39,640 nt of DNA from a virus (Duplodnaviria > Heunggongvirae > Uroviricota > Caudoviricetes). Below are positions 2,529-15,460 of the stretch, in pieces. The stretch's first letter is position 1; every line of letters begins with the position of its first letter. The notes below the pieces were generated by a model. The model saw only the letters and a program-made list of their open reading frames with translations. It had not been told where the DNA came from and did no database searches. Both the position numbers and the translations under genes were made by a program. The DNA lies in IMG/VR virus record IMGVR_UViG_2563366929_000005; one strand, written 5' to 3'.

Positions 2529-2737
2529 TATTTCGCTTGATACCAACTCAAAATCTTTTTTGTCGCATCCATTGTGGATTAATATTCAGAGGTAAGGGGT
2601 ATCTGCGGAATTTATATTTTGCAGGATGAGCATACAATACATGATATAACATCTGTTTTTGGCACAGAGCATATAGTCAGATTATGTTTAGTTCTGTGCC
2701 ATAGATGGATACTATCTCACCTCTTGGCTAACTCTCA

Positions 2738-5201: not shown

Positions 5202-5328
5202 TTTGTTCTCCACGTATATGCGCTGCACCGCGCTGAATTTGGGTAAAAGGAAGCCCTCACCATCCGGTGATTATTGAGTTAATTACGTTTCCATAAATGC
5301 CCCCGCAGGGGCATTTGCAGTAATGAAA

Positions 5329-6153
5329 TCAGGCGGTGAAAGTACCAATAAAGGTTTCTACTTTGCTGTCTTTGAATTTCTCAACAAGCAGATCACGAAA
5401 TTCGTTAGCCATATCTTCCTGCACCGCTTCCAGCTGAATAATGCGCAGAACCAGTACAGGACGATCGCCAGTGATAATGCTGAGGCGTAATTTAAACGGA
5501 CGTTCTTTCAGACCTTCAAACGGAACGCATTTAAATTCAAATGCCACTGGCATAATGTCTTTGGTCTTCGCTTCGACAGATTCCATCAGGGAGCGTTTGC
5601 CGCTGAAGTCATTATCTTCAAAATCAGCGGTCTGGTTTGCTTCAATCGTGATTTTACGGATTGCCGCAGCCGCTTTTGTTGCCTGAATGGCGTCACCATT
5701 AGCATCAAAGCCCACAAGGTAGTCGGCCCAGTCTTCAATCCATTCTGCCAGTGATTTCTGGGAGTTACGCTCGCCGTTAACAGACAACAGGGCAGAGAAC
5801 GGTGCTGTCTTTTTCAGTTTGAGAGTGGCGGTGTTATCTGCGTGACCTGGTTCATCAATAGTACCCAGGTTAAGCACACTGACGGCACGCATATTATCAG
5901 CATCGATAAAGCAGCGGGTGCCTTCATCTGCAAGATCTTTAGAATAACGGGTAAAGTCATCGATGCTGGCAGTGGAAAGCGCACCACGGAAACGGAAGCG
6001 ATTTAAATTAAATTTTTCCAGATCATGAATGCGGAAATTCTCAGGCAATGCCACAGCATCGGCACCAATCTTACTGATAATTTCATTAACACCCTGAGCA
6101 GAAATAAGGGCATGGATTTGATTAATTGCGGTTGCGTCTAAGTTCTGAGACAT
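5329..6153 (-). CDS. yfdQ: YfdQ-family (DUF2303) protein
   Basis: 274-aa ORF. Size, sequence character and position between the YfdP-like and YfdR-like genes match the family. Confidence 0.8.
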
Positions 6154-6218: not shown

Positions 6219-6581
6219 TTAATGACCTGCTGCGCGGAGTTTTCCGTCAGGTTCACCGGCAAGAGTCAGTAATTGTCCCTGGTCTTCCTGCAGAATAGTC
6301 AGGCGACCACCGCGATTGACATACATCGGCGTTTCGGTGGTGTCTTCTTCAGAAATTTTCCCGCGGTTAGTCGGGCGAACATATGAGAGTTTGTGTTTGA
6401 TTTTCACACGGTTCTCATCAAACGGTTCGATTTCCAGGTTGAGCGAGACCTTACCTTTGGTTTTCGTGTTCATCACACCGGAAGCGACTTCACTGAGAAC
6501 TGCGCCGATTTTGGTTTCAAATACGCCGCCGTCCAGCTCCCCGATAAATGCCTGCACATCAGTACTGCGTTCGCTAGCCAT
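6219..6581 (-). CDS. YfdP-like early protein
   Basis: 120 aa counted from MASERSTDVQ, with a GAGGAG Shine-Dalgarno just upstream. The N-terminal 62 codons of the track ORF run through structured non-coding leader and are rejected. Confidence 0.7.
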   Translation of the reverse strand: MASERSTDVQAFIGELDGGVFETKIGAVLSEVASGVMNTKTKGKVSLNLEIEPFDENRVKIKHKLSYVRPTNRGKISEEDTTETPMYVNRGGRLTILQEDQGQLLTLAGEPDGKLRAAGH

Positions 6582-6629
6582 TTTGCTGCTCCTCATCATA
6601 TCGACCCTGCAAGGTCGGTTGGTTTCTCC

Positions 6630-6763
6630 ACAAAACAGAGAAGAACACCTGCGGTGGCAGCCGCCCGGATGGATTGGGTTATGAGCCCGTCGTCCGGTGA
6701 TGCTCTTCTCTGTTTTGTAAAAAGAGCGGTACCAGCCGGAAGCAAGTGTACAAACTGGTACCG
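6630..6763 (-). promoter_or_regulatory. Two large RNA stem-loops in the leftward-operon leader (candidate processive-antitermination or leader RNA)
   Basis: Perfect 15-bp inverted repeat ACAAAACAGAGAAGA (6630-6644) / TCTTCTCTGTTTTGT (6704-6718). Perfect 9-bp inverted repeat CGGTACCAG (6727-6735) / CTGGTACCG (6755-6763). A boxA-like CGCTCTTTTTAC (minus strand, 6717-6728) lies between them. Confidence 0.4.
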
Positions 6764-7052
6764 CCAAAGCAGTGGCTGTTGTGGTGACCGGTGCTGATCT
6801 CCGGCTTGCGGTTATTTCAGACTCTCACGGGCGTTTAATTGCCCCGCCGAACAGCTCTTTTCCGCAATAGCTGCAATGTCTTTCGCGCATCAGCCTGCGC
6901 ATTCACCACAACGCTAAGGATTCTCTCTGGTTGAAAATACTTAGCTGTTATGTGCCTGCTTTTAGCCACATCAGGCGAGGTGGACCTGGTTATTCCCCAA
7001 CAACAAGGATTTGGTTATTATGTAACCCTCCCCAACAACGATAAGGATTTAT

Positions 7053-7142
7053 ATGGATCTATGTGTAGATAAGTATGAGGAGAGGCATGTGCCGTTAAGA
7101 CAAAAGCCTCCAGTTCCTCCAAAACCACCCAAGGAAAACTGA
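7053..7142 (+). CDS. Proline-rich micro-ORF A (29 aa): MDLCVDKYEERHVPLRQKPPVPPKPPKEN
   Basis: ATG preceded by TAAGGATTTAT. The stop lies 7 nt before the 2-TM gene. It shares an H-V-P..PPxPP(K)PP core with micro-ORFs B and C. It is below the ORF-track cutoff. Confidence 0.4.
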   Translation: MDLCVDKYEERHVPLRQKPPVPPKPPKEN

Positions 7143-7149
7143 GACTAAT

Positions 7150-7644
7150 ATGACCAGAGACGATTATAAATTTTATGTTCACTACTCTTATGTATTGGAG
7201 AAGATGAATTACACGTTGTTAACTCGCATTGATAAATTAATAACGTTGATGTTAATCGTTCTCGGTTTTTCAGTTTTCGCCCCGTACAGTAATTTATTTA
7301 TTTTCGGTTTGTTTGTTGCCGTACTTTCGGTTCTTCAGTTGGTCTATCAGTTTGGCCAAGAGGCTGGAATGTCTAAAGAGCAAGCGAGGCATTACAAAAG
7401 ACTGCTGATTGAGTCTGATACCCTTCCTGAAGATCAGTTGCAAGCTAGGTATTTAAAAATCCAAGATACTGATAGTAATCCATGGAAATCACTTGAACGA
7501 GCGGCTTTCATTCGGGCCTGTATTTTTGCTGGTGTTCCAACTAAGTACGATTTAACAACCAAAGAAAAATTTATAGCTTGGTGTGCGGGAGATCTACCTC
7601 TAGAGAATGAACTAACGGATATTAATGATGACCAACAAGCATAA
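7150..7644 (+). CDS. Two-TM helical-hairpin membrane protein (SLATT-like topology), candidate superinfection-exclusion or abortive-infection effector
   Basis: 164 aa. TM1 is LITLMLIVLGFSVFA and TM2 is LFIFGLFVAVLSVLQLVY, separated by a 4-aa loop and followed by an amphipathic soluble tail. The gene is AT-rich, on the opposite strand to the early-left operon, and has its own terminator downstream. Confidence 0.7.
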   Translation: MTRDDYKFYVHYSYVLEKMNYTLLTRIDKLITLMLIVLGFSVFAPYSNLFIFGLFVAVLSVLQLVYQFGQEAGMSKEQARHYKRLLIESDTLPEDQLQARYLKIQDTDSNPWKSLERAAFIRACIFAGVPTKYDLTTKEKFIAWCAGDLPLENELTDINDDQQA

Positions 7645-7718: not shown

Positions 7719-7787
7719 ATGAGTCGACCAATAGAGCCTTTTCATATTCCACCTCGTCCCAGGCCACCAGATCCAGGCCCAAAGTGA
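7719..7787 (+). CDS. Proline-rich micro-ORF C (22 aa): MSRPIEPFHIPPRPRPPDPGPK
   Basis: ATG preceded by TAGGATTGGATA (an AGGA Shine-Dalgarno with 7-nt spacing). The core is HIPPRPRPPDP. The terminator hairpin starts 25 nt downstream. Confidence 0.4.
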   Translation: MSRPIEPFHIPPRPRPPDPGPK

Positions 7788-7801
7788 GGGTTACTGATTT
7801 T

Positions 7802-7810
7802 TAAAGAGCG
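7802..7810 (-). promoter_or_regulatory. boxA-like element (CGCTCTTTA) of a candidate nutL
   Basis: The minus strand reads CGCTCTTTAAAAATCAGTAACCCTCACTTTGGGCC about 100 nt downstream of the putative pL. Compare lambda nutR, recalled as CGCTCTTAAAAATTAAGCCCTGAAGAAGGGC. The boxB-like hairpin is weak (3 bp). Confidence 0.4.
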
Positions 7811-7811
7811 A

Positions 7812-7834
7812 AGCGTCCGGTAGGGCGCTTTTTT
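7812..7834 (+). terminator. Intrinsic terminator of the plus-strand accessory mini-operon
   Basis: AGCGTCC-GGTA-GGGCGCT hairpin (one G.U pair) followed by TTTTTT. Confidence 0.65.
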
Positions 7835-7917
7835 GGTACTAACGAATCATCCTGGACTTCATATGCCCCAGGCGGCTACTTCGTGGGCGTCCTGCCTGTT
7901 CGTTATCTTTGATATAA

Positions 7918-7946
7918 AATCTAACTTAACTTAGTTTTAATGGCAA
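7918..7946 (-). promoter_or_regulatory. Putative pL promoter with an overlapping OL operator
   Basis: The minus strand reads TTGCCA-17 nt-TAGATT. The spacer contains ACTAAGTTAAGTTAGA, a 12/16 match to the OR palindrome ACTAAGTAATCTTAGT. Confidence 0.5.
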
Positions 7947-7981
7947 GAGAAAACACCAAACTTTTCTTAGTTCGGTGTTTT
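7945..7981 (-). terminator. Hairpin downstream of the repressor gene (probable cI terminator)
   Basis: AAAACACC (7950-7957) pairs with GGTGTTTT (7974-7981). On the minus strand the stem is followed by a T-rich CTCTT. Confidence 0.5.
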
Positions 7982-8000: not shown

Positions 8001-8627
8001 CTAGAGTTCGTATTGAACTCCTTTGACTACACCAATGATGAGGCAATTACCATTGATCGGGATGTTGGGGTACCGGGGATTTAATGGCACTAAAAACTTT
8101 TGAGGGCCATCGATAACTAATTTTTTTACTGTGGCTTCGTTTGTTCCATCAAGTCTAGCGATGACTATTTTTCCATGCCGGGGTTCTGCATCAGGATCTA
8201 CAATCACTGTTGCGCCTTCTGGTATTGTTGGGAGGCCGTTAGGGTTAGTCATGGAGTCGCCTTTAACCTCCAATGCAAATGAGTTATCACCAATCTTTAA
8301 TGATGTATCTACCCACTTGTCTACTTCACTAAACACTTCTGCTGTCCTGCACTCAGTAAACTGCCCAGCCTGAACCCACGAGATTACAGGAACTCTGCGC
8401 ATGTTTGTGACGAGTTTGCCTTCAAACTCCGCACCATAAAGAATGTAATCTATTGACGTATTGAAGAACTTCGCTAATTTTGAAAGTGCTTCCCCACCAG
8501 GGACATTGATGTCTTTCTCCCAGTACCCCACAGCAACGTCACTTACTCCACAAAATTTACCCAATTCTTTCTGGGACGTTCTGGTAACTCTTCTCAGAGC
8601 TTTTATACGCTGACCAACCGTTTCCAT
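8001..8627 (-). CDS. cI: CI-like prophage repressor (HTH_XRE N-terminus plus S24 LexA-type autopeptidase C-terminus)
   Basis: 208 aa. The HTH is QKELGKFCGVSDVAVGYWEKD. There is an Ala-Gly cleavage region (VQAGQF), a Ser motif (GDSM) and a Lys motif (TVKKL). The gene is divergent from the cro-like gene. Confidence 0.9.
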   Translation of the reverse strand: METVGQRIKALRRVTRTSQKELGKFCGVSDVAVGYWEKDINVPGGEALSKLAKFFNTSIDYILYGAEFEGKLVTNMRRVPVISWVQAGQFTECRTAEVFSEVDKWVDTSLKIGDNSFALEVKGDSMTNPNGLPTIPEGATVIVDPDAEPRHGKIVIARLDGTNEATVKKLVIDGPQKFLVPLNPRYPNIPINGNCLIIGVVKGVQYEL

Positions 8628-14400: not shown

Positions 14401-14729
14401 ACGTTAAATGCGCTGGTGGTTGTGAATGCCGACTGCGGCGGTATTTTGGCGTGACGGCGCAGGTGCCGTATACCGATGTCTGGACGCATAAACCGGTGCA
14501 GTTCTATCCCGGGAAACATCCGTGCGAAAAACCGGCAGAAATGCTGCAGCAGATAATCAGCGCTAGCAGTCGTCCGGGTGACCTGATTGCAGATTTTTTC
14601 ATGGGGTCGGGTTCGACAGTGAAAGCGGCACTGGCGCTCGGGCGTCGTGCAATTGGCGTTGAGCTGGAGACTGAACGTTTTGAGCAGACGGTTCGGGAAG
14701 TACAGGATTTAGTCAGCCAGAACGGATGA
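14401..14729 (+). pseudogene. Remnant of a DNA (N6-A/N4-C type) methyltransferase
   Basis: The C-terminal 92 aa carry HPCEKP and DFFMGSGST (AdoMet motif I of beta-class MTases). An N-terminal-like stub ..LVVVNADCGGILA* (14401-14454) is in another frame. No DPPY-type catalytic motif is present. Confidence 0.7.
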
Positions 14730-14769: not shown

Positions 14770-14845
14770 GGCCCTTTAGCTCAGTGGTGAGAGCGAGCGA
14801 CTCATAATCGCCAGGTCGCTGGTTCAAATCCAGCAAGGGCCACCA
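14770..14845 (+). tRNA. ileZ: tRNA-Ile2 type (anticodon CAU; would read as Met without lysidine)
   Basis: The cloverleaf folds by eye: acceptor GGCCCTT/AAGGGCC, anticodon loop CTCATAA, T-loop TTCAAAT, encoded CCA. It closely resembles E. coli ileX. Confidence 0.9.
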
Positions 14846-14852
14846 TCACATA

Positions 14853-14929
14853 CCGCCATTAGCTCATCAGGATAGAGCACCAGCCTTCGAAGCTGGTTGC
14901 GCGGGGTTCGAGTCCTCGATGGCGGTCCA
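14853..14929 (+). tRNA. argN: tRNA-Arg (anticodon UCG)
   Basis: Acceptor CCGCCAT/ATGGCGG, anticodon stem CCAGC/GCTGG with loop CTTCGAA, T-arm GGGGTTCGAGTCCTC, encoded CCA. Confidence 0.85.
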
Positions 14930-14942
14930 TTATCTGTACCCT

Positions 14943-15019
14943 GCGTTGTTAGCTCAACCGGACAGAGCAATTGCCTTCTAAGCAATCGGTCACTGGTTCG
15001 AATCCAGTACAACGCGCCA
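14943..15019 (+). tRNA. argO: tRNA-Arg (anticodon UCU)
   Basis: Acceptor GCGTTGT/ACAACGC, anticodon stem ATTGC/GCAAT with loop CTTCTAA, T-arm CTGGTTCGAATCCAG, encoded CCA. Confidence 0.85.
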
Positions 15020-15059: not shown

Positions 15060-15460
15060 AAATGTCTCACAATTCAGACGGTTGACAGTTGTCTGTTTTG
15101 CGGGGAGTTTGTTAAAAGAAACTGGCATGGTGAATCCCCCTGTGCGGATGGGCAATCAGCGAGTAGGTATATGGGATAATCGCGGATTCAGGTGCTGGTA
15201 CTGAATTCACCGGGAGGCACCCGGCACCATGCAGTTGACTGAAACCATGTATACTCTCAGGCCCCACGCACATGTGTTGGGGCCTTTTTACATGCAAAAA
15301 AAAGCCCGCATATGGATACGGGCGGCAAGGAACAAAAAACGTGAAGTGATCTATTCAGCCAGTGGATAATACCCTGACGTTACCATATTGCGCAATCGCG
15401 CATTCTTTCTTTTTCGCTCCCCTTATAACTACGCCATCCGTTCGCTGCGGAGGTGAGGCT

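Follow-up and report, generated by a model that had tools for sequence, protein, structure and literature searches.

Introduction

In HK022, a lambdoid phage without N, the early operon is headed by put, a cis-encoded structured RNA made up of two tandem stem-loops of ~70 nt. It directly follows the early promoter and precedes the terminators which it suppresses; its antitermination needs no protein factors and is lost through rpoC mutations in the zinc-binding domain of beta'. RNase III sites are known from the lambda N leader and from the intercistronic regions of the T7 early mRNAs as simple hairpins with internal loops, and the mimicry of tRNAs is represented by the mimic of the tRNA-Thr anticodon arm in the thrS operator, by the stable RNAs of the T4 tRNA cluster and by the tRNA-like domains cut by RNase P. 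The problem addressed here is early-left control in the lambdoid phages of the SfV, ST64B, mEp460 and LLS type, which lack an N protein and for which a 'put-like' RNA was mentioned, as speculation only, in a 2025 paper. A three-way-junction RNA (the junction) is described from the early-left leader of a viral record of 39,640 nucleotides (IMG/VR record IMGVR_UViG_2563366929_000005; this whole stretch of DNA is called the window), together with the terminator of the small RNA (sRNA) sRNA-17 that directly precedes it.

Like put, the junction is a cis-encoded structured RNA heading the early operon of an N-less lambdoid phage, and its copy in a Mixta prophage is located directly downstream of pL; unlike put, it has the form of a three-way junction with a long closing helix, usually follows a terminator and is also found in late-leader tRNA arrays. 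With the RNase III hairpins it shares a long, near-perfect helix directly before the first early gene, the cutting of which would by analogy part the upstream RNA from the message, whereas its helix closes a junction and is accompanied by an invariant loop. The likeness to tRNA lies in the combination, known from initiator tRNA, of a GGG/CCC stem with a CUCAUAA loop, and, for the Klebsiella-type version, in a tRNA-like size, the spacing of tRNA genes and an RCCA end; in contrast to tRNA-like RNAs, the junction has neither D nor T loop, and the copy in the window has a closing helix of 25 bp and no CCA. The preceding sRNA-17 resembles the Rfam family STnc100 in its closing helix (GUGGUGA...UCACCAC), internal hairpins and terminator, and differs in location: the canonical STnc100 copy stands after Q and tRNAs, the sRNA-17 copy in the early-left leader.

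Results

Fold and covariation of the three-way junction

The original prediction, made from the letters of the window, had placed three inverted repeats on the minus strand before yfdP, the first early-left gene, and all three were present at the positions claimed. The second of them is, as described, a perfect 15-bp stem (6630-6644/6704-6718) around a 59-nt interior, and it is lengthened by G-U pairs to 25 bp (6625-6649/6699-6723). The interior had been called partly self-complementary, which is correct and understated, as it forms two defined helices, P2 and P3, and the whole is a three-way junction with the following parts.

6625-6723 (-), three-way-junction RNA, by minimum-free-energy fold, covariance model and covariation
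6699-6723/6625-6649 (-), helix P1, 25 bp, with a perfect core at 6704-6718/6630-6644
A6698 (-) and A6650 (-), the joining nucleotides J12 and J31, respectively
6691-6697/6665-6671 (-), helix P2 (CCGGACG/CAUCCGG)
6661-6664/6651-6654 (-), helix P3 (GCGG/CCGC), short
6672-6690 (-), apical loop of P2, 19 nt, ACGGGCUCAUAACCCAAUC

That the structures of this leader do not arise by chance was borne out by folding of the minus-strand RNA 6570-6800, which reached -96.3 kcal/mol against -68.1 +/- 4.9 kcal/mol for shuffled sequences (z = -5.8; 0 of 200 shuffles were as good).

Homologues were gathered by a pattern scan of viral contigs, by which 126 copies of the junction (53 distinct) were obtained, and more were added by a scan of one genome per species. 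The copies in early-left leaders, with a long P1, and those in Klebsiella-type late leaders, with a short P1, were designated class A and class B, respectively. Because P3 was misaligned in a joint MAFFT alignment of both classes, a covariance model (R1) was built from 18 class A copies only, and the remainder was aligned to it with Infernal. R1 found a single copy in the window (6643-6705, minus strand, 89.4 bits) and recovered every junction copy, one per locus. Among the 53 distinct sequences, 95.9% of the cells were paired, changes on both sides were observed in 16 of the 21 pairs, and P1, P2 and P3 were each supported; the observed covariation was matched by none of the 500 shuffles, and slid alignments paired at 47% or less. 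For P1 of the early-left copies, 35 distinct variants gave 92% pairing across 25 positions, a single fixed mismatch being frequent. The comparison of homologous leaders that had been proposed as a check was therefore answered by stems that are conserved and covary at the RNA level. As G-U pairs account for ~9% of the cells (own count), the fold holds on the minus (gene) strand only and a DNA palindrome is excluded; a palindrome or miniature inverted-repeat element (MITE) acting at the DNA level was likewise ruled out by the strand-specific G-U pairs together with the compensatory changes.

The apical loop

The sequences of P1, P2 and P3 vary, and the loop is near-invariant. Within 6672-6690 the loop includes a mini-hairpin, GGG-CUCAUAA-CCC, and it contains CGGGCUCAUAACCC, a 14-nt exact match to the anticodon arm of what we take to be the E. 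coli tRNA-fMet sequence and the sole 14-mer that this tRNA shares with the window. Variants of the loop are CUCAUUA (ST64B), CUCAUUC (Phi06_2987) and, in class B, a U for the first C of the 3' CCC arm; the GGG/YCC mini-helix shows no change beyond G-C to G-U. Pairing of the loop with the start region of the first gene was considered and rejected, as it works in phiNP (UAUGAGC) and not in the window. A tRNA-fMet-like gene from which the variable loop is missing together with half of the T arm (the 5' half) was observed in a metagenome-assembled genome (MAG) of Gammaproteobacteria, DTU037 (L200, 3660-3730, plus strand); the deletion creates the 19-mer CGGGCUCAUAACCCAAUCC, which is the same as the junction loop and therefore hints at descent from initiator tRNA.

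Distribution

The junction was found in Escherichia, Shigella, Salmonella, Citrobacter, Enterobacter, Kosakonia, Leclercia, Phytobacter, Erwinia, Mixta, Pantoea, Klebsiella and Raoultella, and it is carried by 2488 of the 5426 complete E. coli genomes (~46%, including O157:H7) in up to five copies. Among the matches listed (eight E. coli rows) it was unannotated or lay under a 'hypothetical protein'. Nothing in Rfam covered the junction, either in gathering mode (the window and six loci) or at E <= 10 (6400-7200 and a class B copy). A literature search for the core sequence of the junction as DNA, RNA and reverse complement found no paper, and searches on yfdP, STnc100 and put found only the sRNA-17 paper, a Pas/STnc100 preprint and the LLS paper; PasB of that preprint was rejected as the junction, since it sits among structural genes. 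R1 had no match in prophage CPS-53 of E. coli K-12 (L004, yfdO-yfdP intergenic region), in which yfdP-yfdT are kept and the junction is lost, and this loss may explain the absence of the junction from K-12-based transcript maps. The junction is considered to be a widespread RNA family, well supported by covariation and without earlier description, the terminator of sRNA-17 beside it being already known.

A genome-wide pattern scan gave ~50 matches scattered over unrelated phyla, as 17 fixed bases would yield by chance, and among them only L200 and L176 looked non-random. The latter is a hairpin between two small ORFs of an Acidobacteriaceae MAG (2560-2615, minus strand), with a 9-bp stem, a 19-nt loop identical to ACGGGCUCAUAACCCAAUC and an R1 score of 35.8 bits; far outside Enterobacterales, it may be a chance match or a distant relative.

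Genomic contexts

The junction of the window is followed by the features listed below.

6602-6617 (-), small hairpin CGACC-UUGCAG-GGUCG, between the junction and the Shine-Dalgarno sequence
6589-6594 (-), Shine-Dalgarno sequence of yfdP, GAGGAG
6219-6581 (-), yfdP, first early-left gene, as annotated by RefSeq in an identical prophage

The small hairpin (CGACC/GGTCG in the DNA, 6602-6606/6613-6617), which had been predicted to abut the Shine-Dalgarno sequence, is present ~8 nt from GAGGAG. In other leaders it is kept with other stems (GGCGG/CCGCC, GCCCC/GGGGC, GCGCC/GGCGC) and a UGCAG-type loop, even before different first genes. The order of the early-left leader is terminator, junction, GGAGAAAC, small hairpin and Shine-Dalgarno sequence, after which the first gene varies: yfdP, a yfdR-like gene, a 305-aa ORF (putatively rdgC-like, by reading without a family search), or a pair of ORFs, the first excisionase-like and the second integrase-like. 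In the Mixta prophage the order is repressor gene, terminator, operators, a promoter (TTGATT-17-TATAGT), ~25 nt, junction and yfdP, and there is neither an sRNA nor a leader terminator before the junction.

When phages were searched by BLAST, the interior of the junction was also found in Klebsiella and Pantoea phages, at a different genomic place. The Klebsiella/Raoultella-type order is Q (PF06323), pR', tR', one to four tRNAs, junction, ~100 nt, terminator and holin gene. In these class B copies P1 is just 6-7 bp, the junction is separated by 6 nt (GAUAAU) from the CCA that ends the last tRNA, whichever tRNA this is, a distance equal to the inter-tRNA spacing, and RCCA directly follows the junction in 17 of 18 variants. 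In Pantoea, a terminator is followed by the junction and then by an STnc100-like segment. One viral contig, L102, carries both versions on the same strand, one with a long P1 before yfdP (6060-6124, plus strand) and one with a short P1 after NinG-Q (14614-14682, plus strand), so that a rearranged or composite prophage is implied. In the contexts examined the junction always stands behind a repressed promoter, a terminator or tR', a placement that fits expression in lytic growth only. The original prediction had treated the two large stem-loops as one tandem element; they occur independently in other phages, and by this distribution the junction and the sRNA are separate modules, the junction being autonomous.

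The preceding hairpin and sRNA-17

The first inverted repeat (hairpin 1) was located correctly, and its stem is 10 bp rather than the 9 bp given before (6726-6735/6755-6764, 100% complementary, with a 19-nt loop). Hairpin 1 with the UCUUUUU that follows is an intrinsic terminator and the 3' end of sRNA-17.

6719-6764 (-), intrinsic terminator of sRNA-17: 10-bp G+C-rich stem, 19-nt loop, then UCUUUUU (6725-6719)
6720-6913 (-), sRNA-17, 193-194 nt, STnc100-family prophage sRNA; published primers and probe map exactly

sRNA-17 was reported by Sun et al. (2020; PMC7719688) as a 193-nt sRNA of an mEp460-like prophage in E. coli K1 RS218, detected by Northern blot and 5'/3' RACE. The published full-length primers, RACE primers and Northern probe (PMC7719688, Table S2) match the window exactly at 6720-6913, and the small-RNA gene that had been one of the candidate readings thus holds for hairpin 1. 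The full-length primer derived from the published 3' RACE ends at 6720, after four U, the RNA 3' end being placed by the sequence identity of the published primers to the window. A simple terminator scanner missed hairpin 1 because its loop limit is 8 nt. At the same place, 27 of 28 diverged leaders have a different G+C hairpin with U5-7, the exception being the Mixta prophage; across the homologous leaders only 'stem arm + U5-7 + AC' is kept, and the sequence of the hairpin changes completely.

As the 10-bp hairpin directly precedes UCUUUUU, the boxA-like motif that had been noticed here is explained as the 3' arm of the terminator with its U-tract. The segment CGCTCTTTTTACAAAA is present and runs from the 3' arm of hairpin 1 through the U-tract into the start of the long helix, and the boxA-like GCTCTTTTT is replaced in homologues by GTCCTTTTT, GCACTTTTTTT, CACCTTTTTT or GCCCTTTTT. 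On reading the region, no boxB-like (small, GNRA-like) hairpin was noticed, and no credible -35/-10 pair was found between the terminator and P1. A hairpin AAGCG..CGCUU followed by CGCUCUUUAAAAAUC at 7796-7828 (minus strand) is a nearer match to boxA than the motif beside hairpin 1, and it is absent from the SfV homologue.

The body of sRNA-17 consists of a closing helix, GUUGUGGUGA (6912-6903)/UCACCACAAC (6787-6778), around internal hairpins, followed by the terminator. When compared with Rfam STnc100 (RF02076), the SfV homologue was aligned over model positions 1-206, including the terminator, with 39.5 bits and E = 2.3e-7, which does not reach the gathering score of 47 bits; the copy in the window had no STnc100 match at E <= 10. 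The STnc100 architecture of closing helix, internal hairpins (including CCGG..CCGG) and terminator is found in it, and CACCGGGAGGCACCCGGCACCA is common to SfV, ST64B and STnc100. On this sequence and architecture, sRNA-17 is classed as an STnc100 relative below the curated threshold. The window also holds a canonical copy.

15096-15295 (+), canonical STnc100, 133 bits, after three tRNA genes (14770-15019) and a terminator, downstream of Q

Two STnc100-family RNAs are therefore present in one phage, one before the late genes and one before the early-left genes. As no -10 was found upstream of the published 5' end of sRNA-17, this end was read as processed. Three direct copies of ACAACG(C/A)TAAGGATT were observed at 6908-6922, 6997-7011 and 7035-7049 (plus strand); in terms of the RNA strand, the 5' strand of the closing helix of sRNA-17 (AAUCCUUAGCGUUGU) recurs twice more upstream, and these repeats could be alternative pairing partners or protein-binding sites.

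The published sRNA-17 mutant retains a CmR cassette, and its strongest 'targets' were yfdP (96-fold) and yfdR (PMC7719688). Both are genes directly downstream of sRNA-17, and, because of this position and the retained cassette, a read-through effect in cis is the more likely explanation.

Prophage setting and the pL-proximal RNA

The window is an SfV/mEp460-type lambdoid prophage without an annotated N. A prophage of E. coli MS8345, adjoining yjjG, is identical to the window, and its RefSeq annotation was used; no N gene is annotated in it, no systematic search for N having been made. The early-left operon runs leftward from 6581 as yfdP-yfdQ-yfdR-yfdS and onward, and no clear or strong intrinsic terminator was seen in it downstream of the junction. 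The remaining features are as follows.

8725 (+), cro
8001-8627 (-), cI-type (LexA-type) repressor gene
7918-7946 (-), probable pL, TTGCCA-17-TAGATT, directly left of the repressor gene
7842-7903 (-), conserved pL-proximal RNA, ~62 nt, ACGAACAGGCAGGACGCCCACGAAGUAGCC...GGAUGAUUCGU, directly downstream of the probable pL

The arrangement of operators and promoter at pL is the same in LLS. The pL-proximal RNA contains an invariant AGGCAGGACGCCCACGAAGUAGCC and a stem CCNGG/CCNGG that covaries (double changes in 5 of 5 pairs), and its outer stem covaries as well. It heads the early-left operons of SfV, ST64B, phiNP, mEp237, SPN3UB, YeP1 and ZF40, and no Rfam match was obtained for it at E <= 10 on 7780-7960. 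It holds the position of putL in HK022, from the genome of which putL and putR were taken for comparison, and it shares with them only ACGAAC...GGAUGA. The pL-proximal RNA is accordingly a better candidate than the junction for a put-position element by which the sRNA-17 terminator could be passed. It cannot be the whole answer, because LLS, mEp460 and the Mixta prophage lack it.

Several further observations were made around the leader. A 164-aa ORF without a Pfam match (7150-7644, plus strand) lies between pL and the early-left leader; being on the opposite strand, it would be crossed antisense by pL transcripts, and it looks like a moron insertion. In the early-right region, SfV (L002, 7169-7357, plus strand) and ST64B (L127, 6232-6420, plus strand) carry isrK and a C4 antisense RNA of the P1/P7 immI type, neither of which is present in the window. 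The yfdQ-yfdR spacer (5229-5328, minus strand) has a G+C hairpin, AUGCCCCUGCGGGGGCAU, similar to the small hairpin after the junction, and this spacer hairpin is where junction and yfdR are joined in some phages, which suggests that such hairpins mark module boundaries.

Discussion

We tentatively propose, as a reading that may well prove wrong, that the junction is a lytic-phase module which is excised from its transcript and acts through its loop. The terminator of sRNA-17 would halt transcription arriving from the right before the early-left genes and thereby insulate them, and the junction of the window would be transcribed only by polymerases that read through this terminator, which we infer to be those on lytic-phase pL transcripts. 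The working part would be the P2 hairpin with its near-invariant 19-nt loop, and P1 and P3 would be freely varying scaffolds. In early-left copies, RNase III would cut P1 (at least 20 bp) and free the junction; in the Klebsiella-type tRNA arrays this would be done by tRNA-processing nucleases. By the same cut sRNA-17 would be detached and the yfdP mRNA would gain a new 5' end with the small hairpin close to it, and a factor of the host or the phage would be the target of the loop of the freed junction RNA. An RNase III site, as had been suggested before, is a live possibility for the 25-bp helix of the window, the length of which exceeds the about two helical turns (at least 20 bp) of an RNase III substrate; class B junctions cannot be such substrates because their P1 is short.

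A number of points weigh against this reading. Excision, a discrete RNA of ~70-90 nt and an effect in trans are steps that we infer from sequence, and the published sRNA-17 data concern the sRNA and not the junction. A role in cis only (processing, stability, protection from Rho) explains the position at the operon head equally well, and L102, with both versions, fits an element that every operon requires in cis. Part of the invariance of the loop results from the pattern used for gathering homologues, which fixes most of it, and the homologues derived by BLAST do vary in the loop. As to a tRNA-like nature, the Rfam tRNA and tmRNA models had no match at E <= 10 in the window copy or a class B copy, and the junction was not called a tRNA by ARAGORN in standard or relaxed mode, the relaxed mitochondrial mode giving wrong-strand noise only. 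The junction of the window has no CCA, the RCCA of class B may stem from duplication of a tRNA 3' end, and in L050 and L221 the junction is flanked on both sides by GCCAGAUA as a direct repeat.

That the junction acts in cis only, with RNase III or RNase E parting sRNA-17 from the mRNA by cuts at P1 and the U-tract and with no product acting in trans, is rather unlikely in our estimate. The compact fold would keep Rho off a long untranslated leader and the 5' hairpin would stabilise the early-left mRNA, as could be expected of an element that heads the operon whatever the first gene, directly follows upstream 3' ends (terminator or tRNA), keeps a helix of at least 20 bp by compensatory change and precedes a small hairpin conserved before the Shine-Dalgarno sequence; the lambda N leader and the T7 intercistronic sites are precedents. 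However, a near-invariant 19-nt loop beside three varying helices and the tRNA-gene-like placement of the short-P1 version in late leaders are left unexplained. It is unlikely that the nascent junction binds RNA polymerase and renders it resistant to termination and pausing across the early-left operon of N-less phages, as put would. Such a function is suggested by the operon-head position independent of the first gene, by the Mixta copy, which lies ~25 nt downstream of pL like putL, by the class B copies, which precede a strong terminator before the lysis genes, and by the invariant loop, which could be a contact surface for polymerase. N is not annotated in the prophage of the window and none was found in LLS, the authors of which speculated on put-like antitermination without naming a site (PMC12315714). 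The membership in the HK022 put family that had been suggested originally is nevertheless not supported: the junction has neither the sequence nor the architecture of putL and putR, R1 had no match in the HK022 immunity region that holds both, and no HK022 record was among the matches listed when the phage collection was searched by BLAST with the junction. Whereas the Mixta junction directly follows an early promoter, that of the window is past the leader terminator, ~1.2 kb away from pL, and 27 of 28 early-left junctions stand after and not before this terminator. Moreover, no clear intrinsic terminator follows in the operon of the window, class B copies lie in Q-dependent transcripts that need no further antitermination, and a different conserved RNA holds the pL-proximal position here.

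It is very improbable that the junction is a functionless passenger, either a decaying tRNA pseudogene or a relic of recombination. The match to the tRNA-fMet anticodon arm, the location in tRNA arrays, the flanking direct repeats and the truncated tRNA-fMet-like gene with the same 19-mer in an unrelated MAG are in keeping with such an origin, but the fold is shown to be under purifying selection by the compensatory changes of its three helices in at least 13 genera, the loop has been preserved beside flanks that diverge to ~60% (yfdP identity), and 46% of E. coli genomes carry the junction. A nut site (boxA and hairpin, served by N/Nus) or an attenuator or riboswitch controlling yfdP is scarcely credible. 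Although CGCUCUUUUUACAA resembles boxA CGCUCUUUAACAA, its letters are not conserved among homologues, by which comparison the boxA reading was already refuted, and neither a boxB-like hairpin nor an annotated N accompanies it. Three-way junctions in front of genes are a shape common among aptamers, but the 25-bp P1 is too stable to switch and has no competing pairing, and the Shine-Dalgarno sequence is unpaired, so the attenuator proposed earlier was also given up; the junction strands are 0-2 nt long, the conservation lies in the apical loop, the downstream genes are unrelated to each other and there is no Rfam match.

Returning to the proposed lytic-phase module acting through its loop, a more specific form of it, which we regard as quite improbable, is that the junction is a phage mimic of the initiator-tRNA anticodon arm, released in lytic growth as a small stable RNA that would serve as decoy or competitor. 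Candidate targets would be a VapC-type toxin that cleaves tRNA-fMet in abortive-infection defence, or the 30S P site and initiation factors. If true, a tRNA-arm decoy would be a new kind of RNA counter-defence or translation takeover, in about half of E. coli genomes.

For the N-less lambdoid phages, the early-left leader is now split into its parts, namely a pL-proximal RNA, an STnc100-type sRNA with its terminator, and a three-way-junction RNA. sRNA-17 is reread as a relative of STnc100 whose strongest 'targets' lie directly past its own terminator, and the junction is among the commonest unannotated structured RNAs in E. coli.

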